Source: Klebsormidium nitens
Taxonomy: Eukaryota; Plantae; Klebsormidiophyceae
DNA: 64,000 bases
Direction of reading: 5' to 3'
Assembly (NCBI GenBank): GCA_000708835.1
Contig: DF236953.1
Location: forward strand, 45,971 to 109,970
The translations under genes were made by a program, and so were the position numbers. Each line of letters opens with the position of its first letter. The first letter of the stretch is position 1. Below, piece by piece: positions 36,012 through 63,385 of the stretch. Under the pieces are notes generated by a model. It had not been told where the DNA came from and made no database searches. It worked only from the letters and a program-made list of their open reading frames with translations.

Positions 36012-36282
36012 GGGTGTACCAAGAAATGATGTATTACTTCTTAAGACTATAATGGGTATTTTCTGGTACATCTTGCGTGGTATGGCCGACTCATCCAGCG
36101 TTGAGGTGTATAAGAAAAAGACGTATTACTCTTTAGAGAAGAATTGGGCGTTTTCTGGTACATCCAGGGGGGGGGGGTATGGCCGGCCCTGCGAACGTTG
36201 AGGTGTACCAGAAAACGATGTATTACTTCTTAAGAAACTAATGGGCGTTTTCTGGTACATCTCCGGGGGTATGGCCGGCTCT
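36012..36282 (-). repeat. Left array: 3 copies of the ~75-bp quasi-palindromic repeat, in inverted orientation relative to the right array
   Basis: Units GTACCA(A)GAAA..TATTACTTCTTAAGA..TAATGGG..TTTTCTGGTACATC..GGTATGGCCG at ~36014, ~36105 and ~36201 are the reverse complement of the units at 57.6-62.2 kb. Confidence 0.9.
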
Positions 36283-36593
36283 TCAGCACGCCGTGAGCAC
36301 CATTCGGTCGTTATCAATCTGAATCGACCATTTTAGACTCCGGAGCCGCAAAGGATCTCTAAAGAGACTTTTTAGAGAAGCCTATGATATGCGTGCAAGC
36401 TTGCTTCGGCGTCAATGTCAACGTTAGAATCAGCTTCAGCTTCGGGATCTGGGGGATCGAAGATCATTATATAAAAGTCAACAGCAACAGTGTCAATGGA
36501 ACCCAACAGCAACAGTGTCAATGGAACCCCCCCCCTTGCTCATGAACTCTCAAAAGAGACAAGGCAAGTTCAACTTGGGTTGCCTTGCAACAC

Positions 36594-37022: not shown

Positions 37023-40000
37023 ATGGACCTTTCGACCCCCGATGCATCCGAAGCCCTCAAAGATTCCAGCCGCATCGTACTGCTTGCATCGACCACTCCA
37101 GCAGCATCAGCTACCTTGCACGGGACTCTAGCAGCCAATCAAGCAGTCCGGAGCTACGCAGCGGTCCACTTCAAAGGCCGGGTTCCCGCCTTCGGTGACA
37201 TCAGAAACGTCCCAGCGGCTGTCCCTCCTCCACCAAATGCAGGGGGCGTGCGTGGAGGGCGCCCTTCCTATGCCGCCAAGCAGGGGGGCGCCGACTTCTC
37301 GTTCGACTATGGACTCGCCTTCAGCTTGCGGCCTGCCGGGGCCTTTGATCGAGGCGGATTCGGCTCGACGTGCATCGGGCGCACGTGCGGCGGGAAGGGG
37401 GCGGTCTACACTCGGAGGAGCGAACCCTTCATCTGGGAGCGGAAACGAAACCGAGGCGGAGCAGTCATCTGTCGAGGTGGTGGAGGGCATCTCCTTTGCC
37501 TTCGATGCGTGGAGGCCCAGTACAAAGAGGGGAACCCCTTCGTTTCCAGCGCGAGCGAAGGGCCCGTTTCTCAGCAAGAGCTCTTCACCAAGTACGAAGT
37601 GTTTCCCAAGACGAAAGAGCTTCGAGAGGTACGGTCAGGGGAGGTAGGGAGCGAAGGCGGCCACCAATTCTTTGTGCAGAGGAGGGACCTCGCCCCCTGC
37701 CCGTACTGCTGCGAGCCCAAGGTGGCCGGTCCGTCAAGGCGCGGTGTCATGAGAGCGCTGGAAGAGGGGCCGAGCCCACGGGAGCTCGGCACGGTGGCGA
37801 TCCTATCGGAGTTGAGTCGGAGCAAAGTCCCTCCGATTGCGGTTGCCCCCGGCCTTTTCCTTTTGCCCCAGCTCGACGCCCCCAGCGGGCGCCTTCTGGA
37901 CATTTTTGCCACGGATCGGGGGCTCGTCAACGCTCCCCGACTCGTGAAGGTCGACCACATGGGCAGCTTCCGGTGCCTGTGCGGTCAGAAGGCGTGCCGT
38001 GACCACGACGTGGGATTCTTGGAGGCGACGCGTCTCATGGGCGGCTGGTGGCAAAACGGAGAGGCCATCTTCACGGCCTTTGACGACAGTCGTCCGTTCG
38101 TGCGGGAGGTCACGAGCGGTGTGTCTTGGGTGTTGCCGCTAGACCAAGGGGGGTGCGTGGGGGGTGCTCTCTTTGGGTTAGACGCGGAGGCGTGGAAAGG
38201 CGGGCCGCAGCTCCGAGTGTTTGTTGTGAGCAATCCTAAGGAGAAGCCCGTGGTTTGCGTGCTTGTAGGAGAGAATGCGCACTGTGGCGAAGTCGACTGC
38301 ACGGGTCCAAAACGGTGCCGGCACCTTTTGGGCGTGCTTTCGAATCAATCTCTGCCTCTGATTGAGCGCGCCGCAGATGGAGGTGGGAGTGAGGTGACGC
38401 GGACCCTCGCTGAGAGACGGGCGGAGAGGGTCGGGCAGCGAGAAGCGCGGGCAAGGCGGCTCTTGGTCTGCAACGACTCCGTGTGCCGACGACCCGACTC
38501 AAAGGCCGTCTGCACGCATGGAGGTACGCTCGAGGCTTGGGAGTGTCTCTCCGCTGCGGTGCTCGACATGGGACATAGCCACAAGAGGATAAGTACGGTC
38601 ATGAGCCGTGGGGGGAGAAGTGTCACGAGCTTGTGCGAGCGCTGGGGCGACCGGGGTGTACGAGAGAGGGACGAGGCAAAGCATTTCTGCGCCCCGCGAC
38701 CCGTCAATCCGCTCTCACCGTGTGGCCGCGCATGGCAACTGGAGAGTAGGAACGGGGCTCTGACAACCGCGGGAGCGCGCTACCCGGTCACTACCTATCG
38801 AAGGGTCTGTCGACTGGCACCGGGACGCGAGGCGGCGTGCTGCTCAGTAGCCTACGACGGCCAGGTGCGTCCAAACCCCTTTGTCGTACAGATTTCTCCA
38901 TCGCCGCTGCGCGCATTTTTTGTATTGTTGGTATGCCGCTTCCGAAGGTAGCAAAGCATTGTTACTGAGGTAGTCAAACTTGTACTTGGCTTTGACTACG
39001 GGCGAAAATTTTGCTTCGGTCGAGAATCCTTGTCGAGGCTCCAACGGTACCAGGCAGCGAAGGATGGACAATTGTTGGATTGCCTCCTCGTGAAAGATGC
39101 GCTCCAACTCTTGTTCACGGCTCTCGAGTTCCGCTCTGAGGTCAATGCTTTCGGTTGGATTGAGACCGGCCAGTACGGCTTGCGTCTGGAAGCATCTTCC
39201 GAGCTCTGCAAGGTCATGATAATGTTGGACAAGCCTCTCTCTTCGTTCCTTGATGACTTTTGCTCGTCGATCCTCCAGAGCACTGTTGAAGCCCGTTGGA
39301 CCTCCTCGCTCTCGAACAGCAAGTACTTGCAGGTCCGACTCTCGATAGAAGCGGGTCTTGACGAAACCCGAAGGATGAGGAGCCCACTGAAGTGAAGAAA
39401 GGTCCTTGATTTGGTACTTTCGTCGGGCCTCTGCTGTGGTCAAGCAGTCGAGCGCGCGGTGCATTCCAAAGTTCACACAGCTTAAGGAGAATGGCAAGCC
39501 CTTATGCGGTTGCATGGGCCATCGCAGTTCGGTCCAAGCATTGTCGCATACTGTGCAACACTCTCGAGGCCAAACGGTCTCAAAATGTAGCGGACCGGAT
39601 GCGACGCTGTATGGAACCGGGAGCTCGTGCATCATCGTTCCGATAGCCGCGTGTGCATCTTTGCAGGTACACGCTGAAGCTGCCAAGTCCGGAAGACCGA
39701 GCAAGCCATTGTCACCGACCACGTTCAAAGCAAACGCAAATTTGTTGTTCAGAGCCATAACAGAGCAATATAATTAATTTGATCTACTTTGGACGCGCAA
39801 CTGAGGTCAACTTCCTTTCTCATTGCAGGAAGACGGCATCTTCAACTTCTCCGGCACCAACCTCATCTCGCACGGACTCCTCTTGCGCAACCACTTTGCC
39901 GCAGCTCTGGGGGCAGCTCACAGCCTCAACTTTGAGGCGGGGGACATGGCCACAAGGTGCCTCGAGGGGCCCAGCGTCCCTAGGCTGGACGACCGGGTGT

Positions 40001-42074
40001 TTGACGCTGCCATGCAAGCCTTCAACGACCTCGCCGCGCGGCCTCGAATCCAGCACGTCTGCAACCGTCTTGATTGCGCACACCTCTATACCTCAGAGGT
40101 GCGGGCCGCCGAGGTAGAAGCGGAGGCGGCTGGCAAGCCTCTTGCGCCGGAGCGGACCGAGGGGTCTCCTGTTGAGCTGTCGACCTACGCCTTCTGCCGC
40201 GACAAAGTCATCACGTTCGATGGGACATTCTTCCCCAATTCGAGCGCCATGCGCGATAGCGCGGAGGCGACGCTCCACAGCGTCTGCGAGCCGGACCCAG
40301 AGGCCCCTATGGTTCGAGGAGGTTTCACTCCTCTGAGCGTAGGCGGAGTGCGGCCATCCGACGTCCCTCTGGAGGGCATTGACGGACCCTGGAAGTACAG
40401 GAACGGGCTGTCAGAGCTTAGGCCGGCCGTTCGAACTGCGGCCCTTCGGTGGTGCAACTTCCGGAAGGCGGCCGCCCAAGGGAGCAACCTGCCGCTCTCG
40501 GCCGACGAGTTCGTGGCGATGCGGGAAGGTTTGCCGCCTCACGTGAGAGCCCTCTTGGATTTTGCCACCGAGTCGGTAGCGTGCCCCAACCCCGCCGACT
40601 GCGCGACTTGCAGAGCGGTGCCTCGCCGCCCCTGGATGGACGGGGTGTTGAAGAACGGTCCCGTAGCGCCCACGGAATGGTGTCCGACCCACTTTCAATC
40701 GTACGCGGCACTCCTGCACGCTCTGCTCATCCCTCGGTACAGCTGGGTGTTTGGCCACATCGTGGCGCTGAAGCTGCTAAGGCACGTGTTGCTCGAAGGA
40801 GCGCTCGACGAGCGGGGGCTTGCGTACCTCACAAACGATGCCCCGATGCTGGCGGCAATCCTTCGAAGGCACCCGACGAACGAAGGGCCCAAGCAGTACT
40901 GCTTTCCCTCGGCGCTACGGCCTCTCATGCGCGACATCTACGCGGCCAATCTACTATGCTTTGAGCCGACTGCCAACCGCCCCGGGGCATCGCTTCGATC
41001 CCCTTTGGCGGCCCTCTATGACGCCACTGAGCATCTATGGGCCCTTGAGAGTGAGAAACTCCGATCATTGGGCAACTCTGGGGAGGCCGCCATTCTCTAT
41101 GCGGAACAGCGCGGCGCGGCGCTCAAAGGGGCTGCGAATTCTCGCTTGTTCGACCTGGAGGTGCGAGAACCCCAGTGCTACACACCAAACGGCTTCCTTA
41201 GAGAGCCCTCCGCTGTTTATAGGGACCGCGTCGGGGCCGTCTCGCTGTACGACTTCCATCCTTTGCTTTATGGGCGGCCGCAGTTCACAGACTGGGAGGA
41301 CACTTCGGGTCGAGGGAGAAAAGGCTCGGAAGAGCGGCTGGCGCAGCACTGCGGGGCTCCCACTCCTCGGTCGGCAAAGGGCCGTGCTGGAATGTTTATC
41401 GCGTGCTGCCAAGACCGAGCGCCGCTGGGCTATCACTGGCTTAAGGGAGGCGAGAGCGTATCCGACCTCGGCACCGTTCTGATCACACGCTTCCCGTTCA
41501 AGACGCTCCGTGGACTGACGATAGTCGAGGATGCCGCTTGCAATGCGCAAGAGTGGCTCTTGAATCGGTGAGTATTGATTTTGCTTAATTTGATTGAAAA
41601 TTCAATTCAAGGTGCCAGCACTGTGGCAAAGGCTCGATAAATCGTTTTCAAGGAACCATCGTTTTAGTGCAATCAAAGTTTATTTGTTCAAGGTTTAACC
41701 ATCATTTGCAAATTGCTTGCAGGGTGCCTCAGCTGGCAAAGTTCATGCTATTCGTTGTCGATCGGTTTCACTCGGGACCCGTGAGCTGCGCGCCGGCCGG
41801 AGCCGCTAAGCGCTACGCAACGCACACTTGTTCGCCGACGCTCTTCATCGATTCGTACCCTCAGCACGAGGCGACAGTGACAACCGCTAGCGAGGGCCTG
41901 AACTCGGGCCTGAAGCGCTCGGCGGCTAGTTTGCAGCAGATCACGAGCATCAGGCGGCTGATGAGTAGAGTCACGACCATCCTCGACACGCTGTTTGAGC
42001 GTTTAAAGTACGCGGACTATTGGAGTGAGACTAGCAGCCCGTTAAGGGACTCAATTCGGAGGGGCCGTGGTTGA
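37023..42074 (+). CDS. KDZ (Kyakuja-Dileera-Zisupton) superfamily transposase with SWIM-like and CxC cysteine clusters. Exons 37023-38864, 39829-41567, 41723-42074
   Basis: In-phase GT-AG splicing. SWIM-like FRCLCGQKACRDH and CGEVDCTGPKRCRHL; CxC-type YDGQ|EDGIFNFSGTNLISHGLL; VITFDG; KDZ core GMFIACC...GYHWLKGGESVSD...TRFP...EDAACNAQEWLLNR|VP...FVVDRFH...CSP...SEGLNSGL. Confidence 0.88.
38844..39758 (-). CDS. Intronless 304-aa protein with an XPA C-terminal-like DNA-binding domain, nested antisense in KDZ intron 1
   Basis: CxxC followed by LTTAEARRKYQIKDLSSL...PHP...TRFYRESDLQVLAVRERGGPTGFNSALEDRR, which matches the XPA_C pattern (itkteAk..Y.L.d.dl...nPh...mrLy...ve..a...hG..eg...e.R), followed by a helical tail. 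Confidence 0.65.
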   Translation of the reverse strand: MALNNKFAFALNVVGDNGLLGLPDLAASACTCKDAHAAIGTMMHELPVPYSVASGPLHFETVWPRECCTVCDNAWTELRWPMQPHKGLPFSLSCVNFGMHRALDCLTTAEARRKYQIKDLSSLQWAPHPSGFVKTRFYRESDLQVLAVRERGGPTGFNSALEDRRAKVIKERRERLVQHYHDLAELGRCFQTQAVLAGLNPTESIDLRAELESREQELERIFHEEAIQQLSILRCLVPLEPRQGFSTEAKFSPVVKAKYKFDYLSNNALLPSEAAYQQYKKCAQRRWRNLYDKGVWTHLAVVGY

Positions 42075-42296: not shown

Positions 42297-45089
42297 TTAT
42301 TGATCATCAGAAGGTCTATCGAGTGTGCTTGAAGGCACCACTACGCGCCCAAATTCGTCTCTTCTGACCACACACACATGATAGTTCGAGCAGTACGAAC
42401 ATGCAATCGACTGTTGCAGCTCTTTCAAATCACCTTGAGGGTTCTTGAACGCTATCCATGGGCCCTCTTGGTCTTCTTTGTAGTCGTGTCGCTGCCAAGT
42501 ATCCACCCATTCGACGGTCGAGCTCCAGAGTTTGCCGTCGTGGAGCGCCTTGCAGATAGCGTTTTGTGGTGGGAACCACCATCCCTTGTGCGTTCGCACT
42601 TGCTGGATGCTGCGTGCTTGCGGCCTCATGTTAAAGATGGCACTCAAAGATTTCATCAAGACGTTGACGTCAACATGGCGATCCTCCTTAATGTCTAGTT
42701 GTGCTAAGAAGATGTCGAATGTACGCTTGATATCCACGGATGCAACCCATGTTTCCAAATAAGGATGAAAGCACCCGTTTTCAAGCAACGCTTGAATCAT
42801 TTTCACATGCGAAGGGATAGAGTGGTCCTTCAGACCCTCTCCCCATGCCGTGATTGGTACCTTCTTGGGATCCCAATCAGAAATGTCAATGGATGACAGA
42901 TATTGATGGAAGAAAAAGGCCGTCTCTGGCTTTCGAAGCTCCTCAAGAAGCTCGTCAAAGTACTGTTTGTTTCCTACCTTGGCACCCGAGCATTCCTGAC
43001 AAGAATATCGCCGGTCATCGGCCTCTCGTTTGACAGGCCATGCATTGTTTGTTGTAAACACGATGTTGCTCCTGTCTTGTACGGAGATTGCATCGAGTCC
43101 TTTCCTTTCGAGGCACGTTGTCTCTTGAGTAATCAGAGACTTCATTCTGTCGTTCATCTTGTACGCTCCCCCCCAGTTGCCAGCTTCGTCAAGAACAATC
43201 AGCAGCTTGTTTGCCCCAAGGGAATTGAACTGACCAATGATCTTTTCAATCTCGTTACAATACAGATAATTCTTGCTGCCAATGATGTTGATCCCATAAA
43301 AGTCAAGCGGCACTGATTTCCCGCATCCCTGGGGCCCACGAAACACGAGAGCCACCTGAGTCTTTTGCCAGGGCCTCTGAACCCCATGGGCCATCCACCT
43401 GGTATTGTATTCAAACCGTTCAGCAGATCCATCGCACAAAATGTAGCGAATGTGCCACATAAGCCTTGGAAATTGCTTTTCGCACTCGGCGCGCTCAGAA
43501 GCTGACAACTTGCGCTGCAGCGGTGCAAAATTCAAACCACAGAATATGTTGAAGTGTCGGGGCGAGACCTTGGATAGCTCAGGCCCAAACACAATCTGGT
43601 CGAATTCGCGTCGCTTTGGACTGCTTTCCCAGAACTTGGCAACTTCCTTTCTCTTGCCGGGCAGGCAATGGAGTTGTAGATTCTTGCAGCGTTCAATAAA
43701 ATTGTGGCCCGACCTTTCGATAGTTTCCTCACGTTGGAGACAGCCATTTGTGTTTTGTGAGTAGATGGTCTCAATATAGATCGCCTTTGATGTGCCGACA
43801 ACGACGGCAAAATAATGACTCATCATGTTTACCACGAGGTTTTCTAGGTCCGTTTTTGCTTGTTTGGTACAATCGTCATTGCCTTTTGCCTTTGATACAG
43901 GGAGCAAATAACTTTCGCAAGCACTAATGAAGCTCCCTTCTGCCCTCAACGGTAAACTTTCCGGCCAAAAGTGGACGCCAAGCAGTCGCTTTGGTTGATC
44001 AATGCACTCCGCACTTAGACATTGATAGAGAAGAATCCCTCCATTGCTGAGGATGCTGAAGTTGTTTGAGATGTGTTGGTGGCCGTTCAAGCACGTTCGA
44101 GTGCCTATTGTCTTGAATTTGAGAATCCTCCATCCATTTGGAGTTTTTTCTCCGACACCGTTGAAGATGCTACAGTCATTTGGTACCTTTGCGTGTAGCA
44201 TCTTCCTTATGTCTTTGAGTGCTCGTTCCAAACCCGGCAAAACCAGCTTGTCATGCACGTCACTAGATGATGCTTTCGCTTTTGGCATTGCTTCCTCTTT
44301 CGCAAATGGCCTTGTAATGGCCCCACATCCATACGAATCGCTTTCATTTGGAGATTTAACCGTCTTCTCTTCCTCGTCTTCCTCTTTTCCGCTATGCTGT
44401 TTGCAATCATTTAGTATTCTGACTAGCCATGAAGGCATGTCTTGGACAGCATCAAAGGTTGGAGGCCCGTTGATCCACTCATATGTTGCGAGCTGGCCAC
44501 GACCATTGACGTAGCTCGCAGGGTGGGCAAAGACAACACCCTTTCCGCCTCTCCCATCAACCGCAAAAGTCTCATCGCCAACCGTTAAGGTTGAGAAGTT
44601 TCCAGTGCACGTAAGCCCTGGCGAATTTGCTTTGAAGAAAAAGTGTTTTCCGCCCGACCCTGTCTTTGCCTGAAGCGTTGTGGGCTCCCCATGCTCGGCA
44701 ATAAGACGACGCCACAACTCCATGCCCGACTTCTTTGTGGTATCAATAACTTCTTTGACGGTGTTGCTAGTAACGTCTATATCCACCGCATAGATCCCAC
44801 TTGCACCCGTGAGTATCGCAACGCCGTTGGCGTCTGGCCTCTGGCGTAGTGCGTCATTGATGGAGTTTTGCCACGTGTCGAGGTCTTTAATGTGCTCGTA
44901 TGTGCGAGGAAATCTAGGATATTTTCTCCCCTTGTTCTTATCCCAAGAGAGGTGCACGGGGATTGCGAGGAGGCCACCTTCACAAAGTCGTAAGATCTCG
45001 TCTTTAATGCTCTGGGGTCCTGGACCATTGACCCTCTGTGAAACTTGAGGCCCGAAGCCGCTGACCTGCTCATTGCCAGATACAGACAT
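42297..45089 (-). CDS. Intronless 930-aa bifunctional primase-polymerase (Prim-Pol) + Zn-binding + SF3 (D5/DUF5906-like) helicase
   Basis: Prim-Pol motifs NGVAILTG..IYAVDIDV, TLQAKTGSGGKHFFF, VDGRGGKGVVFAHPAS..YEW; CxxGHxHxxNN...YQCLSAEC; Walker A GPQGCGKS; Walker B LIVLDE; motif C VFTTNN; DDRRY. Confidence 0.92.
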   Translation of the reverse strand: MSVSGNEQVSGFGPQVSQRVNGPGPQSIKDEILRLCEGGLLAIPVHLSWDKNKGRKYPRFPRTYEHIKDLDTWQNSINDALRQRPDANGVAILTGASGIYAVDIDVTSNTVKEVIDTTKKSGMELWRRLIAEHGEPTTLQAKTGSGGKHFFFKANSPGLTCTGNFSTLTVGDETFAVDGRGGKGVVFAHPASYVNGRGQLATYEWINGPPTFDAVQDMPSWLVRILNDCKQHSGKEEDEEEKTVKSPNESDSYGCGAITRPFAKEEAMPKAKASSSDVHDKLVLPGLERALKDIRKMLHAKVPNDCSIFNGVGEKTPNGWRILKFKTIGTRTCLNGHQHISNNFSILSNGGILLYQCLSAECIDQPKRLLGVHFWPESLPLRAEGSFISACESYLLPVSKAKGNDDCTKQAKTDLENLVVNMMSHYFAVVVGTSKAIYIETIYSQNTNGCLQREETIERSGHNFIERCKNLQLHCLPGKRKEVAKFWESSPKRREFDQIVFGPELSKVSPRHFNIFCGLNFAPLQRKLSASERAECEKQFPRLMWHIRYILCDGSAERFEYNTRWMAHGVQRPWQKTQVALVFRGPQGCGKSVPLDFYGINIIGSKNYLYCNEIEKIIGQFNSLGANKLLIVLDEAGNWGGAYKMNDRMKSLITQETTCLERKGLDAISVQDRSNIVFTTNNAWPVKREADDRRYSCQECSGAKVGNKQYFDELLEELRKPETAFFFHQYLSSIDISDWDPKKVPITAWGEGLKDHSIPSHVKMIQALLENGCFHPYLETWVASVDIKRTFDIFLAQLDIKEDRHVDVNVLMKSLSAIFNMRPQARSIQQVRTHKGWWFPPQNAICKALHDGKLWSSTVEWVDTWQRHDYKEDQEGPWIAFKNPQGDLKELQQSIACSYCSNYHVCVVRRDEFGRVVVPSSTLDRPSDDQ

Positions 45090-45196
45090 GTCCTTGAGTC
45101 ACATAAGGAAAAAAAGCGTGTTGAACAAACGCACCACAATTGGGCTGCGGTCGAGGCATTGCGCAAAATAATCTCAACTAACAACAGGACTCGACA

Positions 45197-45588: not shown

Positions 45589-46644
45589 TCAAAATTGTAT
45601 CTTGGATCCGCAAGGGAGGTACTTTTTTTCATAATGTTTTTGTGCAACAGCGGCGGTGTGCAGCATGCTTCGCGCAAGATCGTCCCGTTCGGCAATGCTT
45701 GGAGCATCCTTGAAGAGATTGCTCACACAGATCTTCCGCAGCAAGCAACTACCGACCTTTGCGTCTTTGAAGAGGCCAGTTGAGCAAAACTTGGTGAGAT
45801 AATTCCTACTCATCGGCTTATCCGGCGATCTCATCCGAGACAAGAGGTACGTTCTAGGAAAGACTTGCAAGCTTTCAGCAATGACGTTGTTGCATCGGGT
45901 GCTCATATCTATTGAAGTAGGTCCATGGTGCTTAACGGTTTTAAAGTCCTTCAGTACGAGACGAAACTGGTCTTCTGCAAACTCCAGCATATAGTTTTCT
46001 GACCCCGACATTGTTTTACATGCCTCAGTGGTTTCGATGTCCTCAAAGCGGATGATCGGGCACTCTGAGTAGTCGTTGCGGATTGCAGGCTGATACGTGA
46101 AGAGACAAAGGTTCAAGTGACGGATCAGAATTATCTTGTCCTCAATAGACAAGTCCTCGGGTGACTTGACTAGAATCTTTCTATTTACATGCCGTTGTAG
46201 CTCGACTCTTCGTTCAGCTATTTCATCGAGTGTCTTCCAATTGGTGGCTTCTCTTTCTGTCAACACCTGTGGAGGCGGCCGCGCCTCATCCATCAACTTG
46301 CGAACCGCTGTGTATCGTGCGTAATAGACGTCGTACGACGATTTGTTATCAGGAAACGCTTTGCGCACAATGACTAGCAATGGGTTTAACCCGGTCGCTT
46401 GCATGGATAGCTTGGTGGGGTATGTGTCTTGAAAGTACTTAATAATCGCATCAGCATCCTTGATCCAATCCACGCTACCAAAGTCCCTTTCTCGATGCAA
46501 CCCTTGAAACAGACGCATCACATGCTTGCAATATTGCTGGATCGTGAGCTTCTTTCGGCCACCGTCATCAAACACTTGGCGTAGCAGCCGTTCACTAGTG
46601 GTCACCGTGGTTATGTGCCTTGTGCCTTTGGTGGGCTCCGACAT
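45589..46644 (-). CDS. Tyrosine recombinase/integrase, Polinton-like-virus/virophage type (351 aa, intronless)
   Basis: Catalytic set in order: R (QPAIRNDY), K (DFKTVKHHG), LLRKICVS (HxLRH variant), H (MLHT), Y (KHYEK); helical N-terminal domain. Confidence 0.85.
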   Translation of the reverse strand: MSEPTKGTRHITTVTTSERLLRQVFDDGGRKKLTIQQYCKHVMRLFQGLHRERDFGSVDWIKDADAIIKYFQDTYPTKLSMQATGLNPLLVIVRKAFPDNKSSYDVYYARYTAVRKLMDEARPPPQVLTEREATNWKTLDEIAERRVELQRHVNRKILVKSPEDLSIEDKIILIRHLNLCLFTYQPAIRNDYSECPIIRFEDIETTEACKTMSGSENYMLEFAEDQFRLVLKDFKTVKHHGPTSIDMSTRCNNVIAESLQVFPRTYLLSRMRSPDKPMSRNYLTKFCSTGLFKDAKVGSCLLRKICVSNLFKDAPSIAERDDLARSMLHTAAVAQKHYEKKYLPCGSKIQF

Positions 46645-46911
46645 CTTCCAGTTATCTGGATACCTCGGAGAAAAAAATGACCAAGGAAACGCTTCCCTTC
46701 TCAGATATTGTGAATTTCAGAGGTCGGAATTGCTTTCACCAATCAGGGACCGGTAAAAGCTTTTCATGGTTATATTGGTTATGAAAAGCTCCTGCAAGCC
46801 GACTTTACACCAGGTGTGTTTAGTCTATTTTCGGCCGAAAAGTTACTAGCGCTAGATACTGTGAATATGCTTGTACAAGAATTACTGAACGGGGTCTTTT
46901 AAGCAAGTCCG

Positions 46912-47819: not shown

Positions 47820-50800
47820 TCACCGAAGCTCAATCATACACTTTCCGTAATCCTCCTCGCCTGCCGGCGAACTCAACTCCTCTAGCAAAGGATAACCAGA
47901 CGGCCTACGCAATAAATGATCAAGATCGCTTGCATCTACCTCGTTGAGAAACCCTCTGACTGCAGGCTTTAGCTCTTTCCGATGCTGCCAGACACGAGGG
48001 ACTTCACGAAATTGCAGCTTGACGAGCTTTGCCATCCTGAGAACGTACTTCCGCTCGAGCTTGTACTTGTAGTCGCTGTTTCCGGACCCCGACTCGTGCT
48101 GCTTCCCCTTCCCTCGCCGCGGACGGCCCACCTCGATTGCTTTCCCCAGCTTGAGGCCCATGTGTTCCAGCACCCCGTTTATCACCCCCTTAAATTGAAC
48201 CGGATCAAGATCAGCCTTTCCCTGTCTGGGTGCCAGCAGCTGAATCTGGAACATCTCGGAAACGGCACGCTCCGACATCGCGGTTTTCCCGCCGACCTGC
48301 TTAGGGCGGCCTTTGAACAGCTCCGATTTCAGGAGCCTGTTTTTGAGTCCGCCTGCAAGTAGCGAGCGAGTTTCACCGCCCGCATCGAACGCATGCGCCA
48401 GACCCATGTCCTTGAGCAGCCCCCGCGCCGTCTCCACCATTTTGATCTCGTGACCCTGGCGAGCCACCGCCCCTTCGTCGAGCAACTGGCCCTCAAGTAG
48501 CACCTTCAGCAGAAAGTTGAGCTTCTTTGAGAACGGGGGCTTGTAGTCGGCCTTTGTTTCCTTGAAGAAGTGCTCGTCGAGGTCCTTCAGCCCGTAATAC
48601 TGGCAGGCCTCGTACCTCGTCACCTCGAGATTCTGCGCCCCCCTGTCCCTCTTCACATCTCGCAACCGCTGCAACTCCTTAAACTCTGCCGCATCGATCG
48701 CCCTCGCCCCGATGATCTGAAACTTCTCCGTATCCAGCCCTTTTCGCCTCTTACTCCTTCTCGCAAGCTCCTCGGGTTGCTCAATCTCCACCACGTGGCC
48801 AGCTCGCGCGACTTGCAGCTGGAACTCGTGGAGAAGGCGCGCATCCGAGTTCCGCCGCTCCGCCTCCGTGTGCGCGAAGGTTTGGAAGAGGGGCCCGTCC
48901 TCGATCAGCCGAACAACTTTGCCGGGGTCCTCGGTCCTTGACGCGACTCGCCTCCATGCAGCCGTCACTTCGCTGTTGCAGGCTTGCAGAAACTGCAGCG
49001 TCTCCGCCGTGGTCACGCGCCGTGGGGGGGCAAAGAATCCCTGCAAATAGGAACATCAAATTGTGTGGTTCTTCATGCACAGCTCTGCCACAGTCAGATG
49101 TTATCTCCAAACAGGTTTGGAGATTGCCCAATATCTCCCGAAATGGCCCTCACAAACCTGCCCCCCAAACTGGCCCTCAAGAAAGCTAGCTTTTGAACCG
49201 GCCCCAAACTGGACCCCACGAAACAAGCCCACTAAACGGAGTCCCACGAAATTGGCCCAAAAGGCGCCCCCACGAAACTGGCCCTCAAATGGCCCTCACA
49301 AAACTGTCGCGCAGTGGATGAACACTTGCTCATTGTACGCTTTGCAAAGCCATGTAAAGCTAGACAGTCGGACATAATCTAAGGCAGGCACGTCGATCTT
49401 CACTTCCCACCTTGAGTTGCTCAAATTGTTGGCCACAGGAGACCTCCACGCCCGACTGAGAATCGGACGCCCGGTTGAGAGGGGAATCGACCGCCACTTG
49501 CTGGTCCAAGCGGTCGCCAATAGCATCCTGTGGGTGAAAAGGAGAACAATCGTGTCAATTCCTGGTATTGGAGCACGTGTCTCAGGCTCGCTATCAAGCA
49601 GCGTTGTCAGCACCTCCGCAATGAAGCACTTTTGAAGGGCCGTCAAGCAGCATTTGGAGCACATTCTTCCAGGATTTAAGCTGCACCACCGGAGGTTGCA
49701 TGGCTCGACTCGAGCAAGATGGGAAGCAATGCGTATAGTGGGAGGGACGAAGCGCACAGATGAGATAGAAGAAATACCTGCAAAGCAGGGTCGTTGTCAG
49801 CGTCCGGAGCCTGCGGTGCCATAGCCGTAGTTCCCTGCACAAACAAGCAAGTTGAATCCCTTATAGCACAACGAAAAGAGATGCAGGTTTCAGCACGAGA
49901 TAGATCCAAGTGACTTCCGCAGCTTGAGCACAATGCGCGGTTAATTGCTCAACGTCAAGCGAGTAACCTGGAAGAGCTGCCGCATGCGATCTGCTCACCT
50001 GCTGTTCCAGATTGCAGAGTTGCATGGCCGGGATCTCTTGGGCACAGTCGAGCATCACGGAGATGGACGACTGGACGAAGCAGTGAACCAGCGAGCTCTC
50101 CGTTCGCCGGACCCGCAGCGACGCTTGCCAGGCTGCCCGAGCCGTGGTGCTCTTCTTGCACATGAAGAGGAACTTGGTGTGGAACCAGTCCTCGTCAAAG
50201 TTCACGCCCGCCTCCACGGAGGGACTGTACATGAGCAGGCGGACCTTCCAATGTTCAGCAACATTCTTCAGAAGAGCCGTGGTGTCGCCCCCACTCAAGG
50301 CCCTGTGGATGAGGATGTCCGTGTCTGCGAGCCCGAGCGAGTCCTGCGATGTGACCAGGTCCCGGATGCGGTCCAGAACCCGCGCGAACATGCTGACGAC
50401 GACCACGTTCTTGCCGGCTGCGAGATCAGCGACAATCCGGTCCAGCCACTTCTTCTCGTCCTGACAGACGCGAAACGTCAGGGGCACCTGCGCATAACAC
50501 GATACAAAAGATCAGCGCATCATTGGCAGAATATGCGATAGAGAGCATTGTGTACCAAGTAACGGTCAAGCTCTTCGAACCTGCTGCTCATTGGTACTGC
50601 ACTCTCAAACAGAACACCGTCAGTAAAGCTGACGGTATGGCCGGGCCCTGTGGCGGGTCAAGAGCTGCATGGAGATTCAAGCAGTCAAAGCAGCACGTGC
50701 TGAGGGACTCTTGGCTTTTAAGGCGTGGCAAAAGTCTGTGTGCCTTAAGAGCTATTTAGCACGCCGATTGTCCGGAATCCTATTCGCAAATCCAGTTCTA

Positions 50801-53779
50801 ATTTCTTCGTTAAATCCGAGCACTGCCAAAGCAAAGACATGCTGAGAATGGGCACTTCCAAGCGCCCAGAGTCCGAATGGCCAGAACTTCAGCAAGCAGA
50901 GAGATGCGCTGCGTCAAAACCGCCATCCAGATGGAATTAATTTAGTGCCTACCGCTGCCCTTCTCGTGTTGATGATGAGCTTGCCAGGCACGTTCGCGAG
51001 TCGAAAGAAGTCGTGCTCCCGCTGCCCGTACCCATCGTCCATGGCCAACACGCGCTTCGCCCGCTGCACAATCTCCAGGAACAGCTCACTAGTTTCCATG
51101 CCGCTTCTCAAGGTCGCCCCCGAGAGGTGCGCGAGGATGCTTGCCACCTCGTCCAGGATCACGAGGCCGAACGGGCCCACCTCACCGATGCCGCCCGGCC
51201 GAAGGTTCAGAAGACTGTCAACCTGAACCACGATCTCAGGGAACTCCTCACGGGACTGGAGCGCCGTCAAGAGTCCGTGCGTATTATTCGGATCCGGGAA
51301 CCACCTGGTCTCGTAATCCGCCTTCAAGTCGAGGTAGTTCGCAGTGCGGGGAAAGCGGTGTTTGAGGTCCTCGGCCTGCGCCACACGGTATGTGATCATG
51401 CAAGTCCTCATTGGGCGGCCGCTCGCTTCCCGAACCAGCTCACAAAGCTCGTCCGAGATCGCCCCGCAACACACCGTCTTGCCGGTGTTCACACCCGACC
51501 GGATGCCAAGAAGGGGAAACTTGCCCGCGATCCACCTGCGCAATGTACACACGAGAGTCGCTGTGCTGGCAGAGCCTGGTACGCCGACAAGTCCAAAATG
51601 GTTGCTGCTGAGGGGCAGATAAGCATTTCGCAAGGAATCTTGAAGTATGAGTGAGGAAGGCTGCTTGATCTCAAGCAAGACGGAGGACGCATGTGCCTGT
51701 CGGAGTTGATCGAGGTCGCACGCACGTGCTTCAAGGCAATCCGCATGATTAACGCCAGTCTGCAGGCCGGCAACAATCGATTCATGACTAGATCATTCCT
51801 CATGCAAAGAACTTGGAGTCCTATGCTTTGTAATTATGTCGCTCACTTGTTGATGACTGTGTTCAGCTTCATTGGGTTGTCCGCCACCCTCGAACCCCCC
51901 GCGACTTCAGCCACGAGCTCAGGAGTCGATGCATGCGGAACCCGCCTGAGATACTCCATGTCTACCTTGACTGCGCCAGCCTCGTACGAGATGTTGTCGT
52001 CGAACAGGTCCCCGAGGCAGAACGCCTTGCTGACACAGGGAAAGTCCGAGTCCCCGCCCTCGGTATTATTGCTGAAACACAGAGCATAGATCTTGCCATT
52101 TGGGTTGAGGTGGCAAGTCAGATTCTGACGGTTCTGGTGAATCCGGCCCGTGTAGCACGGCTCTGTGCGATTACTGTAGTTATAGCGATCGGGGCCCTCC
52201 TCGTAGGCGCTGGGATGCAAGCGCTCTCTGAGAAGCGCCAGCATGCGCGTTTTGACGAACTCCTCGTTCTTCGAACTGCGCTCAGTGCCCCTTTCAGACA
52301 TCACTCGAGGGTTTTTGAACCTCTCGTGGAGGTTGCTGGGCACTTCGAACGGCAGCTTGAGCTCTTCGCGGGCCTGCAGCACAGGATGGGCAGCCGTTTG
52401 CGTGCGCATTCATGCCAAGTCGTCTACGTCGCCTTGTCAAAATGAGAGGCCAAGGTGGTTAGTGTTTGGCGATCACTTGAACTGGAAAAATTTGCGCTGC
52501 CTTTCAACCAAGGATTGTGTGAGAGCAACAGATTGGAACAAAAGCCGAGCGCCTTCAAACGCAGCGATCCCATCAAGCTTCAACGCTGAAGAGGCGATCA
52601 GAAACGAGGAGTGTGCCACAAGCAGGGTCCTTCCTTCCGTAAAGATGAAGGCCGCATGTCAAGCAATCACTGCTCAGGCTCGCAGCAAAACTAGCAGGAT
52701 GTACCAAGAAACAACCTATTACTTCTTAAGAACTCTAATGGCCGTTTCCTGGTACACCGATCTTGCTGGGTATGGCCGGGCAGCACATCAAGCGCCAAAA
52801 CCGTTTCGTACCAGGAAGGATGTGTAACTCTTCAAAGATTGAAGCCGTTTTCTGGCACAGCCTTCATATGACCGACCAGGCAGGTGTGGGGGCCGGATGA
52901 GCTGCTCACCTCGAGGGGCTCCAGCCAGGTAACCAGAGCATCCTTCCAAGAATGGGCCGGATTGATGCACGTCAGGACGCTTTCCGGCTTCTCGATCTTG
53001 GCGCTTCCCGGGGTCCGCCACTCACGGTCCTTCGAGCACACGTTTAGGTCGATGGCGTCGGCGAGTGCAGGATGCCACTGCTGCAGCCTCTTCTTGAGGC
53101 GCCTCGCAAAGTGGAGAGCCCCCTCGGTGTTAGAGGCGAAGACGAGCTGGCGGGGGGCCAGCTGGTTGATTGTGAGGTGGAGGCTGAACTTGGTCTGACC
53201 GGGGCTCTCGATCCAGACGAAGCTGCTCTGCTGCAACTCACAGTCGTATTGCTCCTTGAACACGATACTGGCCCACTTCTCCATGAGCCCAATCACCTCC
53301 TCCCGATCGTACCTCTCCCCAGCCTCCACAACCTCCCCATCCGCCCCGATCACCGGCTGACGCCTAAATGGAAGCCCCTCCTTCCAGTCGAGGTCGAGGT
53401 AGGGCTTGCAGGGCTTTCCGTTCTGGATGATTTCGGTCACCGACCCATGCCGCCCCTCCAGATGCGACTGCGCTGTCTCCCAGTCCGGGTATGAGGCAAA
53501 GCTGCGCCAGGGGACCCTGACCCCTTCCCGAAGCATGCCAGACCACTTGTGCAAGACCACCTGCGCCTCGTAGTTTAGGAGCGCCGCCTCCTGCTGCATG
53601 AAGACTTTTGGGCCAGGAAGGCGGCCCCTGGGGTTGGCCCCGGTCTGATGGAAGCAGTTGGTGTCGTGCTCCCGCACACGCAACACCCGGAACTCGTCCT
53701 TCTTGAAGACCTCGTTGCCAGTCAGCGGATCAGAGAGAATTGCCGGCTCGGGCGCCGCCACAAGGTCCTCGTGCGCCAT
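47820..53779 (-). CDS. Multi-exon AEP (PrimPol/herpes-NCLDV-type) primase + Zn finger + UL9-like SF2 origin-binding helicase. Exons ~53779-52910, ~52373-51847, ~51640-50948, ~50486-49990, possibly ~49520-49410, ~49043-47820
   Basis: AEP motifs EIIQNGKPCKPYLDLD, KFSLHL, IDLNVCSKDREWRTPGSAK; UL52-like CxxGRIHxN...CFS...C; helicase GVNTGKT, VILDEVASILAHL, VLAMD, AGKNVVVVS, YSPSVEAGVNFD..WFH, QASLRVRR. GT-AG introns separate the blocks. Joining all blocks into one gene is inferred. Confidence 0.82.
49143..49305. repeat. Degenerate ~16-bp minisatellite (aaactggccc(c/t)cac) in a helicase intron
   Basis: About 8 recognisable variants of aaactggccc/ccccacgaaa. Confidence 0.6.
52700..52875 (-). repeat. 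Two isolated copies of the quasi-palindromic repeat inside the AEP intron
   Basis: 52704-52790 is a near-exact reverse complement of 62101-62180; a degenerate second unit follows at ~52806-52870. Confidence 0.85.
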
Positions 53780-55471: not shown

Positions 55472-55665
55472 GTGGTGGCTCTACAGCGGCGGAGAGAGGC
55501 TTGCTGGCAGGATGCGGAGGGCTCGAGGAGGGGCCCGAGTTCTGCAAGACAGCAAGAGGGTGAGGAGTTTAGGGACAAGGGGCGCAGAGACGAGACAACC
55601 TCGACCAAAGGAAGTGTATTCCACATACTTAGGGCAAAGCTTTGGCGCTCAAAGGGCATCTGATT

Positions 55666-57112: not shown

Positions 57113-57524
57113 ACCTCCGCAGTCGTAATCGGAATCGGGGGCTGTCCGGACGAGCTGCTCGGGGCGTCGGGATCCTGTGTTGGCCCCGGGTTGCTTTCCA
57201 CGCCCCCGATTTTCAGTTGTGTCGCTGCAACGCACCGAAGGGATCCCTCAATCAATCGTCCTCAGAATGGCAAGCCCTTCAAGCTAGACTCGTGCATTCA
57301 CTGTGGTATCCACAAAGCCGACGGAAGCCTATTCTTGCCAACAAATGCCAGAGATCTGCCATCGTACCTATCAGCGCCCTGCTCTTTGGTGCTGAGGAGT
57401 AAAAGATCTTCTCCGACCCGCACTCGTAGGTCGGAGATCCTGCACGAGCAGAATGTTGGGGGGTAAGCCTGAAGGGCCGGGCGAGTTGAGAGTCCTGCCA
57501 CAATTCCAGCGGTCCTGCAGACAT
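57113..57524 (-). CDS. Putative spliced ORF start carrying a 2A-like motif (IGGVESNPG/P)
   Basis: ATG 57524; a phase-1 GT-AG intron at 57367-57225 joins ...SRALI-A-TQLKIGGVESNPGP-TQDPDAP...; donor GAG|GTGAG near 57113. Downstream exons are unresolved. Confidence 0.4.
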
Positions 57525-58078
57525 TCGAAATCTTACAAAGTAAACACTTGGCGCTTGCGGTGCGGCAAAGGCTCGCACCATATTCGGGGGCCCGGCCATA
57601 CCCTGCAGGATGTACCAAAAAACGCCCGTTAGATTCTTAAGAAAGTAATACAGCGTTTTCTGGTACACTCGGAATGTGCGCTGGATGGTCGGATCATGCG
57701 CTTGAAGGGCAAGGCCGGCCATACCCTGCAGGATGTACCAGAAAAGGCCCATTAGATTTTTAAGAAAGTAATACAGCGTTTCCTGGTACATTGGATTGTG
57801 CGCAGGATGGCTGGAATCACGCTTGATGGGCCAGCCCGGCCATGCCCTGCAGGATGTACCAGAAAAGGCCCATTAGATTCTTAAGAAGTAATACTTCGTT
57901 TCCTGGTACACGCTGATTGTGCGCTGGATGGTCGGATCATGCGCTTGAAGGGCGAGGCCGGCCATACGCTGCAGGATGTACCAGAAAACGCCCTTTAGAT
58001 TCTTTAAGAAGTAATACAGCATTTCTTGGTACACGGTCCGGCACCCCGCAAAGCCTCACACCGTTACAGGATGTTTGA

Positions 58079-58464
58079 NNNNNNNNNNNNNNNNNNNNNN
58101 NNNNNNNNNNNNNNNNNNNNNNNNNNNNNNNNNNNNNNNNNNNNNNNNNNNNNNNNNNNNNNNNNNNNNNNNNNNNNNNNNNNNNNNNNNNNNNNNNNNN
58201 NNNNNNNNNNNNNNNNNNNNNNNNNNNNNNNNNNNNNNNNNNNNNNNNNNNNNNNNNNNNNNNNNNNNNNNNNNNNNNNNNNNNNNNNNNNNNNNNNNNN
58301 NNNNNNNNNNNNNNNNNNNNNNNNNNNNNNNNNNNNNNNNNNNNNNNNNNNNNNNNNNNNNNNNNNNNNNNNNNNNNNNNNNNNNNNNNNNNNNNNNNNN
58401 NNNNNNNNNNNNNNNNNNNNNNNNNNNNNNNNNNNNNNNNNNNNNNNNNNNNNNNNNNNNNNNN
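58079..58464. other. Assembly gap (N) inside the repeat array
   Basis: N run. Confidence 1.
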
Positions 58465-60513
58465 GAAAGTAATACAGCCTTTCTTGGTACACGCTGATTG
58501 TGCGCTGGATGGCCGGATCATGCGCTTCATGGGCAAGGCCGCCATACCCTGCAGGATGTACCAAGAAAAGCCCCTTAGATTCTTGAAGAAGTAATACAGC
58601 CTTTCTTGGTACACACCCCCGCACTCTGCAAAGCTCCGCACCGTTTTTGAGGGGCCTCGGCCATACCTGCCAAGATGTACCAGAATCTGAGCGGACTTTT
58701 GATGTTCGAGAGGAAGTCGCCGAAAACTATCACGAGAGGACACGCATGGGATCGTTGGAAGGAGAAGGAGTCGTCGCTCACCTTGGAATGCGCTCCTCAC
58801 CAGCACGCTCTTTGTGGCGGTGGGCTGAACCCCAAACCTGTCGCTCCTGCTTGACAGCGCGCACAGTCCCTCTGCGCGGTGGACGGGAGGCTGCCTGGGT
58901 TGCGCCTCGTCACTGGCGGCGTGCTGATGGCGGGCTGCGCCAAGACCGCAGTCCGACTCAGAGTCGCCACTGGTCGCACTGGGGCTGGTTTTGGAGGGGC
59001 TGTCGGGTGCGTCGCGACCAGCAGACGCGGGCTCTGAAAAAGGTTGCGCTCAATGGGTCAGAAAAACGTCGCGCTGGGGTTTCAATGTCACAATTAATTG
59101 CCAAATAACCTGCAGAAGTCCTCGGATTCGTGCGACAGGTCAAGGGCATGCACTCTCAACCGGCCATACCCAGCAAGGTGTACCAAGAAACACCCATTTA
59201 GATTCTAAAGAATAGGGTTTTTTCTTGGTACACGTTCCTGATGAGAAGCAGAACTGACGCACCACAGAACGCTTTCCTTTGTATACAGCTTTTGGGGCGC
59301 CGCTTGGAACCCCTCCCTATATTGCACGACTCGGAACAGTTACCTTCGATTCTGGAGCTAATGACTGTGCCCAGCTGGCTCGGGACACTGCCGGCAGCCT
59401 GGCCATACACTTAAGGATGTACTAGGAAAGGGCAATTAGATTCTTAATTAAGAAACACGCCACTTCCCGATACATGCTGACGGCGCGCTGATCCAGCCAC
59501 ACCCCAAGGATGCACCAGGAAAGAGCCTCAGTTAAATCTTCAGAGAGGAATACGCCATCTCGTGGTACATACTGACAGCGCACCCCAATTCATGCCAGCG
59601 AGTAACAAAGGTTGGGTCGGGCCATGCTTTGCGCCGTCAGTGAATCAAGGCCTGAGCAACACAGTGCAGCGCAAGGGACTGCTGGACGCTCACCTTGCGA
59701 TCTGCTGAGCGCCGTACGACGGCTGCTCGTGGCAGGAAGCCGCCCCGGCTGGATTCCGTATGACGGCGCGCAAAGGCCCTCCCGTGCGGGGCGTTGCAAG
59801 CACTGCGCCTCGTCACCGATCGAGCTGGCGGCGGCGCGCTCGCACTCTAAGGGGTCGAGATTGGGGCGAGTCGCGGCAGCGGCGGAAGGCTCGTCGCAAT
59901 GGCGCGCGTTGTGGACGCCGGCGCCTGGTGATCCTGCGCGGTGGATAAGCACGGCGGCTCGTGAGTTTCACAATTCGCCCCAAAGATCAAGAGCATGCAA
60001 GCTGTCCGGCCATGCCCGGCAAAGACGCCACTTTGTGGTACATGCTCATGGTGCTGCGGGCCCGGCCATACCCCCCAGAATGTACCCGGGCGCTGCCTAT
60101 TCTTCTCTGAAGAAAGATTGAGATGATTCTTGGTACACTTTCGTGAAAGCTGCAGGCCCAGCCATACCCCCCCCAGGATGTACCAGGATTTGCCCATTAG
60201 ATTCTTAAAGAAGTAACACAGCGTTTCTTGGTACGCCTCAGAACGTGCGCTACGGTGGGCTGCAGGTCCGGCCATACCCTGCAGGATGTACCAGAAAAGG
60301 CCCATTAGATTCCTAAGAAAGTAAAACAGCGTTTCTTGGTACACTCGGAATGTGCACGGGACGGGGCGGACTGTGTGCTTCAAGCGCGCTTGATGGGCCA
60401 CCCAACCATACCGTGCAGGATGTACCAGAAAAGCCCATTCGATTCTAAGAAAGTAATACAGCGTTTCTATACCCGGCTTCACACTCTGCAAAGCCTCACA
60501 CTGTTTGGGTGGG

Positions 60514-61262
60514 NNNNNNNNNNNNNNNNNNNNNNNNNNNNNNNNNNNNNNNNNNNNNNNNNNNNNNNNNNNNNNNNNNNNNNNNNNNNNNNNNNNNNNN
60601 NNNNNNNNNNNNNNNNNNNNNNNNNNNNNNNNNNNNNNNNNNNNNNNNNNNNNNNNNNNNNNNNNNNNNNNNNNNNNNNNNNNNNNNNNNNNNNNNNNNN
60701 NNNNNNNNNNNNNNNNNNNNNNNNNNNNNNNNNNNNNNNNNNNNNNNNNNNNNNNNNNNNNNNNNNNNNNNNNNNNNNNNNNNNNNNNNNNNNNNNNNNN
60801 NNNNNNNNNNNNNNNNNNNNNNNNNNNNNNNNNNNNNNNNNNNNNNNNNNNNNNNNNNNNNNNNNNNNNNNNNNNNNNNNNNNNNNNNNNNNNNNNNNNN
60901 NNNNNNNNNNNNNNNNNNNNNNNNNNNNNNNNNNNNNNNNNNNNNNNNNNNNNNNNNNNNNNNNNNNNNNNNNNNNNNNNNNNNNNNNNNNNNNNNNNNN
61001 NNNNNNNNNNNNNNNNNNNNNNNNNNNNNNNNNNNNNNNNNNNNNNNNNNNNNNNNNNNNNNNNNNNNNNNNNNNNNNNNNNNNNNNNNNNNNNNNNNNN
61101 NNNNNNNNNNNNNNNNNNNNNNNNNNNNNNNNNNNNNNNNNNNNNNNNNNNNNNNNNNNNNNNNNNNNNNNNNNNNNNNNNNNNNNNNNNNNNNNNNNNN
61201 NNNNNNNNNNNNNNNNNNNNNNNNNNNNNNNNNNNNNNNNNNNNNNNNNNNNNNNNNNNNNN
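60514..61262. other. Assembly gap (N) inside the repeat array
   Basis: N run. Confidence 1.
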
Positions 61263-62834: not shown

Positions 62835-63385
62835 GACCGGCCATGCCATCAAGTTTTGACGTTGTACCAAGAAATGGCTTATTGATATCTAAAGAAAGAA
62901 TTGGCCAGAACTTGGTACACTTCCCAGCCATGCCAACAGTTTTTGGCGCTGTACCAAGAAGTGACCCAGAATAATCTCAAGAAAGAACGGGTCAGAAACT
63001 TGGTTCCCTTCCCTGCGCACGCCCAGGCATGCCATCAACTCTTGGTGCCATTTTGTTATGTTCAAGAATAAGTGGTCATGACTTGGTACCTTCCCTGAAC
63101 ATGCCTAGCCATGCCATCAACTTTTGACACTGTACCGGGAAATGGCCTATCATTATCTTCAGAAAGACCTGGAGAAAAAAACGTGGTACTGCTCCCTACG
63201 CATGCCCAGTCCTGCCTTAAACTTCTGGCGCCATTATTATGTGGTCAAACCTGGGACAATTCAACGCAGACCCAGCCATGCCAACAACTTCTGGCGCTGT
63301 ACCAAGAATTGGCCCATTATCTTTAGAAATCTTTAGAAAGAATTGGCAAAAATCTGGTACACCTCCCAACGCACGCCCAGCCAGG
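62835..63385 (+). repeat. Diverged subfamily of the same repeat (~6 units)
   Basis: GCCATGCCA(T/A)CAA...TGTACCAAGAA...CTTGGTAC units retain the inverted GTACCAAG arms. Confidence 0.8.

Follow-up and report, generated by a model that had tools for sequence, protein, structure and literature searches.

Here we describe P0001, an open reading frame (ORF) of 304 residues plus stop (38844..39758, minus strand) that lies antisense within the first intron of a transposase-like gene of Klebsormidium nitens. All coordinates refer to the window, the 64,000-nucleotide stretch of contig DF236953.1 that was analysed. P0001 is a real, apparently unannotated transposon cargo gene, and we hold it very probable that the element carries it as a gene with an XPA-type DNA-binding domain. 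Its function is proposed from domain likeness: our preferred explanation, with a rough probability of 0.4, is that the protein is an accessory adaptor of the element, in which an XPA-type module and a probable F-box would direct the SCF ligase of the host to proteins at or close to element DNA.

The P0001 frame, translated from 38844-39758 on the minus strand, is free of internal stops. Within intron 1 it occupies 894 nucleotides, or 92.7% of the 964-nucleotide intron; its last 21 nucleotides, exactly, overlap exon 1, and its ATG is 70 nucleotides away from the intron acceptor. The initial annotation, made from the DNA letters, had described an uninterrupted 304-residue ORF nearly filling the intron on the opposite strand, and this description stands. 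Order-1 Markov resampling of the region gave at least 304 stop-free codons in 1 of 3000 trials and at least 250 in 11 of 3000, which together with the conserved homologs described below rules out a chance ORF. The remaining five frames of the region contain 7-11 stops each; with an intron on the sense strand and that many stops in each of its frames, an antisense shadow of a coding frame is ruled out as well.

Intron 1 (38865..39828, plus strand), of the GT-AG type and in phase 0, is defined by its splice sites, a paralogous contig and gene models. The donor GGCCAG/GTGCGT is at 38864/38865 and the acceptor TTGCAG/GAAGAC at 39828/39829, and the GC content is 52% in the intron versus 63% in both exons. 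The junction is read through as YDG[Q/R]EDGIFN in 8 of 13 K. nitens gene models of relatives, which are predictions. One contig of run X15, guessed to be RNA, contains exon 1 up to the donor followed by letters encoding EDGIFNFSGT; its exon 1 is that of a paralog, with 14 differences in 80 nucleotides relative to the window, and in this paralog the intron 1 junction is spliced. In the DNA run X1, six contigs depart from the window sequence just past the donor and seven just ahead of the acceptor; the intron of other copies is therefore different or more diverged. One gene model, P0050 (KFL_015070010), has at the intron-1 position 120 unrelated residues (605-724) that match neither the window nor the other retrieved proteins, possibly a different cargo in the same slot.

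Residues 55-185 of P0001 (39204..39596, minus strand), comprising a zinc-finger subdomain, a MerR/Xis-like subdomain and a long basic helix, show remote homology, extending to the zinc finger, with the XPA/Rad14 DNA-binding domain, as judged from family profiles and fold searches of models. The likeness is visible only with such profiles and models: as a single sequence P0001 has no Pfam, PDB or PHROG match, and neither P0001 nor 22 family members match Pfam XPA_N or XPA_C at E ≤ 1. Family profile A4 finds Rad14 at E 4.4e-5 and XPA at E 5.9e-4, its nine best matches all being Rad14/XPA, and its alignment to them brings both CxxC pairs and the T..EA...Y helix into register; family profile A2 finds Rad14 at E 0.0011. 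Because the full-length search with VIA, a fold comparison independent of Foldseek, was swamped by long helices and left XPA at rank 8, residues 55-185 were refolded alone, giving a model with a predicted local distance difference test (pLDDT) score of 92.5. Against the PDB, Foldseek placed XPA/Rad14 in 12 of the top 13 positions (best E 4e-3), with the SLC30A9 domain 2enk in the remaining one. In VIA, XPA/Rad14 took the first four places among 48,161 solved chains, with Z 7.2 (6j44), 6.6, 6.5 and 5.9 over 99-113 aligned residues at a root-mean-square deviation (rmsd) of 6-9 Å, followed by 2enk (Z 5.8) and then by MerR-type folds (Z ≤ 3.6). The XPA C-terminal-like fold claimed in the initial annotation is thus borne out, both by the Rad14 profile match and by XPA/Rad14 heading three PDB fold searches, and the signature is wider than was claimed, covering not just the C-terminal subdomain but also the C4 zinc finger.

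The C4 zinc-finger ligands are at residues 68, 71, 91 and 94 (39477..39557, minus strand), as aligned with relatives, residue 91 being Ser in the window copy. Among the relatives having a residue at these columns, Cys is present in 15/16, 17/17, 17/18 and 17/18, respectively. At least three close copies, P0002, P0008 and P0011, keep all four cysteines and an open frame that extends from the zinc finger to the shared stop. The C-terminal helix is basic, with 18 Lys and Arg versus 12 Asp and Glu in residues 101-190, and it is followed by a region of no assigned family (residues 191-304; 38847..39188, minus strand) that is modelled as helical, with low confidence past residue ~235.

A true XPA ortholog is ruled out: P0001 is without a Pfam XPA match and without the C-terminal cysteine pair. 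In PMC10810185, which like the other articles cited here was available in part, XPA orthologs are defined by XPA_N, XPA_C and six cysteines, including 261 and 264. No CxxC of the C261/C264 type follows the domain in P0001 or its close copies; the alignment to XPA stops near XPA residue 231, and only 54 residues lie ahead of the domain. The available text of PMC10810185 also states that green plants and green algae have no XPA ortholog, with which the initial annotation agrees in saying so of land plants, and it separates from XPA two outgroup clades, one with cation-efflux (SLC30A9) and one with F-box domains. XPA-type domains occur outside excision repair too, and these two clades had been missed in the initial annotation. 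Because the leads for P0001 point to them, the absence of XPA from plants is not where the interest of this gene lies.

In total, 34 homologous protein records were retrieved, with identities to P0001 from 92% down to ~25%. Where a source is listed (29 homologs), it is always a JGI, Logan or ENA gene call and never an NCBI gene model (0/29), and the nested gene appears to have been missed by annotation. At E ≤ 0.001, a search of 1.84 billion representatives gave no relative outside the P0001 family. Nesting in the relatives was read from the ends of homolog proteins and from matching contig sizes, not from the DNA of related loci. Twelve of the 34 homologs run into the flanking transposase exons: in ten, the C-terminus reads the antisense of the exon 1 end, and in three the N-terminus reads the antisense of the exon 2 start. 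They include P0013 (48% identity), P0018 (42%), P0019 (35%) and P0027 (49% over 47 residues), and in the other 22 the position is uninformative or perhaps elsewhere. Ten of the 29 homologs for which a contig size is given have a longest contig of the same size as that of a transposase homolog (nine sizes), which is circumstantial. Nesting in the transposase intron is conserved, down to 35% identity; other copies of the element do carry the same nested ORF, a check that had been suggested along with the initial annotation.

Homologs at 25-50% identity retain the frame and the four cysteines. If the contig-size pairings hold, six copies with exon 2 at 73-80% identity to the window have nested ORFs at 80-92% identity to P0001, and three copies with exon 2 at 72-80% identity have nested ORFs at 38-49%; between two other copies, identity is 86% for the transposase and 42% for the nested ORF. 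Since the identities of ORF and transposase are decoupled, intron exchange between subfamilies would be the simplest reading. A divergent subfamily (P0021, P0055, P0056 and P0057; 25-33% identity) has the four cysteines and an acidic tail; the protein ends of the P0021/P0056 group carry no sign of nesting, and the subfamily may sit in another context. Alignment of the nested ORF to metagenome and viral contigs confirmed nothing, the transposase and recombinase-like queries had no match in viral contigs, and P0056 had none in phage genomes. A motif scan for the exon junction returned 13 loci, and the nested ORF is encoded in none of them (0/13).

The N-terminal region of P0001 (residues 1-55; 39594..39758, minus strand) is predicted to form three helices (2-16, 22-30 and 33-45; pLDDT 60-68) and has an invariant TC; it is F-box-like by weak leads. 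In the Atlas, a language-model resource, the first neighbour of residues 1-190 is an unnamed 302-residue cluster (0.93), and the named neighbours are fungal F-box proteins of 243-257 residues (0.87 and 0.86), the ten best named neighbours all belonging to the family or clan of the best one. Residues 55-190 gave no usable named neighbour in the Atlas; because the domain without residues 1-54 had none, the F-box signal is suggested to come from the N-terminus. In the viral library, the best fold matches come from giant viruses and bear the names 'RAD14', 'XPA domain' and 'F-box domain' (E 6.5e-4 to 9e-2). P0001 best fits the F-box/XPA-like paralogs of fungi and giant viruses, the F-box evidence being weak, and we put the odds that residues 1-50 are a functional F-box at about even.

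These features are brought together in our proposal that P0001 is an F-box-bearing adaptor. A promoter near the 3' end of the intron or in exon 2 may drive the nested gene, with the ATG 70 nucleotides from the acceptor. The XPA-type domain is predicted to grip DNA, and residues 1-50, acting as an F-box, would bind Skp1, by which the SCF ubiquitin ligase would be recruited to proteins on or near element DNA. The targets might lie on the host side, in silencing or repair, or be the element's own proteins for replication and transposition. The intronic seat would let the gene travel with the transposase, the spliced mRNA paying no cost.

Several observations weigh against this proposal. The fold match is modest, with no Foldseek match in the PDB at E ≤ 0.001 and with VIA Z below 8 at the rmsd given above. 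The window copy has C91S, its third zinc ligand being Ser (CxxC...SxxC); Cys-to-Ser changes in the XPA finger are inactivating, and because of this change the window copy may be impaired. Only 5 of the 34 homolog records reach at least 250 residues, for which contig ends and gene calling are part of the explanation. Among 31 in-ORF differences (from the 40 displayed out of 347 differences, mostly private to the window copy), 12 are synonymous and 19 non-synonymous, against 29% synonymous expected (p 0.15). As for the F-box, the Atlas scores are below 0.9 and count as leads only, an F-box-like match appears in 1 of 22 family members (E 0.065), the N-terminal profile finds no F-box protein in the PDB, and F-box structures are absent from the top 50 VIA rows. 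In the available text of PMC10810185, moreover, the F-box clade is without the conserved cysteines, and the P0001 family keeps four. Purifying selection on the nested ORF, raised as a check with the initial annotation, finds this answer: retention of frame, cysteines and position at 35-50% identity implies long-term selection, and the close copies show no significant synonymous excess. Contigs of the nested ORF were found in none of three runs guessed to be RNA, two of which have no contig at all on this stretch, and this is evidence neither way.

The initial annotation had proposed that an XPA-like protein of the element could process or protect transposition or replication intermediates; in such a model P0001 would be a stand-alone XPA mimic, acting on single-strand/double-strand junctions or bent DNA at transposon ends or replication forks, and shielding or processing them with no link to ubiquitin. 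We consider this doubtful, though still a serious candidate: P0001 has the full XPA minimal DNA-binding domain, basic C-terminal helix included, and the primase-helicase and origin-binding-protein-like helicase of the region would make forked DNA. Identity to XPA/Rad14 is, however, just 15-20%, the orientation of the subdomains differs in the model (rmsd 6-9 Å), non-repair proteins use the same fold (2enk), and the conserved three-helix N-terminus with its invariant TC is left unexplained. In a view only slightly more doubtful, P0001 was captured long ago, with a giant virus, a fungus or the host as donor, and is now a mostly decaying passenger in the intron, of no present benefit to the element. 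C91S in the window copy, the many short homolog records and the lack of a significant synonymous excess in close copies speak for this view, as do the several genomic contigs that depart from the window sequence at the intron borders and the unrelated sequence of P0050 there. Yet the frame, four cysteines, motifs and position persist at 25-50% identity, which needs long selection after capture, and in at least three close copies (P0002, P0008 and P0011) the frame stays open from zinc finger to stop, with the four cysteines in place.

It is less likely again that P0001 is a sequence-specific binder of the palindromic subterminal arrays, that is, an architectural or regulatory factor of the excisionase or MerR/BldC type serving the transposase or the recombinase-like protein. 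MerR regulators, excisionases and BldC do occur among the fold neighbours below XPA and SLC30A9 (Z 2.5-3.6), and the region contains 15 palindromic units in inverted arrays on both sides. These matches are nonetheless far weaker than those to XPA and cover ~50 residues only, and a difference of more than 55% between nested genes of copies with 86% identical transposases would be odd for an end-binding partner. That P0001 is a host excision-repair factor replacing the XPA lost in green plants is very improbable. The XPA-type domain and the absence of XPA from green algae and plants in the available part of PMC10810185 speak for it, but the gene is multi-copy, fast-diverging and bound to a transposase intron, lacks the C-terminal cysteine pair, has 54 residues ahead of the domain and has no relative outside its own family in the search of 1.84 billion representatives (E ≤ 0.001).

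The gene that hosts P0001 has three exons on the plus strand, totalling 1311 codons including the stop. Exon 1 (37023..38864, 614 codons) is Cys-rich, with a SWIM-like CxC...CxH motif recognised by eye and, from CxC4 in relatives, the first part of CxC4. Exon 2 (39829..41567) encodes the putative transposase core with TFDG, GGES and EDAACN motifs, and exon 3 (41723..42074) the VDRFH and SEGxNS motifs; relatives read through intron 2 (41568..41722, plus strand) into exon 3. CxC4 (PF18717) is matched in 6 of 10 relatives scanned (E 0.002-0.011, 16-18.5 bits versus a cut-off of 26.9), and the match spans the intron-1 junction. The KDZ transposase domain PF18758 had no Pfam match, and the transposase had no match in the PDB. 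The DG, GGES, DAACN, DRFH and SEGxNS motifs are conserved among the transposase relatives, and we take them to resemble the KDZ catalytic core. The family is dispersed and multi-copy, with 13 K. nitens gene models of relatives on scaffolds of 3.7-170 kb, and the named K. nitens matches are 75-81% identical over most of exon 2. The label 'KDZ' of the initial annotation is favoured by weak CxC4 matches, which are below the Pfam cut-off, and by the likeness of motifs, with PF18758 unmatched. Taken together, the CxC4 matches, the SWIM-like motif, the catalytic-looking motifs and the many dispersed copies are weak but consistent evidence for a Zisupton/KDZ-like transposase gene. Metagenome contig L011 (1648-1962, minus strand), which came from the junction scan, weakly matches the CxC4 junction region (E ~2e-4); it might belong to a distant KDZ-type gene that lacks the intron here.

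In the available parts of the literature, the Zisupton layout is given as CxC4, SWIM and KDZ, with KDZ elements of 6-11 kb bearing extra genes (PMC11343200), Zisupton is described with terminal inverted repeats and 8-bp target site duplications (PMC12730594), an F-box in a platyfish Zisupton isoform is cited (PMC12062965), and Zisupton and Kyakuja elements are reported in green algae (PMC8226300 and the Chlamydomonas v6 preprint). No KDZ content was found in the available part of PMC6431247.

The surrounding region is bounded on the left by an array (36015..36290) of ~57-nucleotide imperfect palindromes (TGTACCA...TGGTACA) in ~95-nucleotide units, and on the right by arrays (57520..63400), containing assembly gaps, in which this unit is inverted; the count of 15 units is by exact-end search. 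Exact element ends and an 8-bp target site duplication were not located, assembly gaps lying on both sides. Inside the region, the terminal palindromic unit recurs at 52700-52780 (95% complementary to 62099-62181), and a further GGTATGGCCG motif is present at 50634; the two may mark a nested or composite structure.

Between the arrays, the minus strand encodes a Prim-Pol and superfamily 3 (SF3)/D5-type helicase (42297..45098, 933 codons stop to stop), with Pfam matches to Prim-Pol (E 1.4e-15) and DUF5906 (E 7e-19) and a PHROG match to DNA primase (E 4.6e-30). It is followed by a tyrosine-recombinase-like ORF (45589..46716, minus strand), recognised by eye from its R..K..H..R..H..Y spacing and without a match in Pfam, PHROG or PDB. 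An origin-binding-protein-like superfamily 2 (SF2) helicase (47820..52445, minus strand) is in several pieces, one of which, 50917-51792, matches Herpes_ori_bp (E 1.7e-6); GVNTGKT and LDEV motifs support the assignment, and the joining of the other pieces is inferred. A 350-codon ORF at 52832-53884 (minus strand), archaeo-eukaryotic primase-like by eye with a KPYLDLD motif and without a Pfam or PHROG match, may be the first part of this helicase gene. Small ORFs at 54950-55471 and 55633-56046 (plus strand) are duplicated in tandem, and the first matches PHROG 38666, of unknown function (E 6.6e-17). To the left, 29967-33154 (minus strand) contains repeated Cys-rich exon-like ORFs with sushi/CCP-type repeats by eye and is probably a host gene outside the element. 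No capsid gene was recognised in 36000-63400.

Runs X2 and X6, from other studies, contain fragments of the transposase region, of the intron and of the helicase and recombinase-like regions, at ~96-99% identity. Because no displayed contig joins the modules in a second copy, the existence of one ~25-kb element is probable rather than proven. Positions 36000-63400 are possibly a composite ~25-kb element, which may be more novel than the nested gene. A bolder reading, which we regard as unlikely, would be an undescribed Klebsormidium family of ~25-kb self-replicating KDZ-type transposons with a DDE transposase, a primase-SF3 helicase, an origin-binding helicase, a tyrosine recombinase and palindromic terminal arrays. 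Its intron 1 would be a swappable cargo slot and its cargo an F-box/XPA-type protein directing the host ubiquitin ligase to DNA junctions of the element. If true, this would be an anti-silencing or repair-hijacking function new for a transposon.

To our knowledge, the XPA DNA-binding module has hardly been described outside excision repair. A version that keeps its zinc finger and is fixed in one transposase intron across copies of 35% identity gives the F-box/XPA-like class a testable context, that of a mobile element in a lineage without XPA. In the literature searched, neither a published description of the nested gene or the element nor functional work on F-box/XPA-like paralogs was found, and for the former the supplements of the founding KDZ papers could have a bearing.

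P0001 shares with XPA/Rad14 (PDB 6j44, 5g32, 5lcl and 5a39) a C4 zinc finger, a helix-hairpin-helix subdomain and a long basic helix, collinear over ~110-120 residues. It differs from them in its 15-20% identity, in having no Pfam XPA_N/XPA_C match and no C261/C264-type pair, and in being multi-copy and transposon-borne; where XPA has a long interaction arm, P0001 has a short helical N-terminus. The SLC30A9/ZnT9 putative DNA-binding domain 2enk has the same XPA C-terminal-type subdomain (Z 5.8, 89 residues), but the match begins at residue 39 of the P0001 model and leaves the zinc finger uncovered, and in SLC30A9 the domain is fused to a cation-efflux transporter. The F-box and XPA-like proteins of fungi and giant viruses (BFVD A0A8F8PME3, A0A7D3R0G1 and A0A2U7UAM6) are alike in size (~240-340 residues) and in using an XPA-type domain in a non-repair context; in P0001, by contrast, the F-box is putative and the gene is nested in a transposase intron, and the P0001 family keeps the four zinc cysteines that the published F-box clade lacks.

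At the level of the element, the Plavaka-flanked giant repeats of Amoebidium (PMC11244446) are loosely alike, with a transposase beside intron-poor gene clusters that include tyrosine recombinases. Plavaka is, however, a different transposase group, and the available text describes no XPA-like or nested gene in those repeats. Cargo-bearing KDZ elements and F-box/XPA-like proteins are each known already: the former include, in the parts available, KDZ1 (10.9 kb) and KDZx1 of Cryptococcus (PMC11343200), the TET/JBP-bearing KDZ elements (PMC12730594) and the platyfish Zisupton with its F-box (cited in PMC12062965). The element in the window resembles Zisupton/KDZ in its weak CxC4-like cluster, its SWIM-like motif seen by eye and its accessory genes, and differs in that PF18758 is unmatched, termini and target site duplication were not found, and the XPA-type cargo lies antisense in an intron. 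This cargo widens the KDZ repertoire past TET/JBP and F-box, and relative to Zisupton/KDZ the neighbourhood adds genes for a primase-helicase, an origin-binding-protein-like helicase and a recombinase-like protein.

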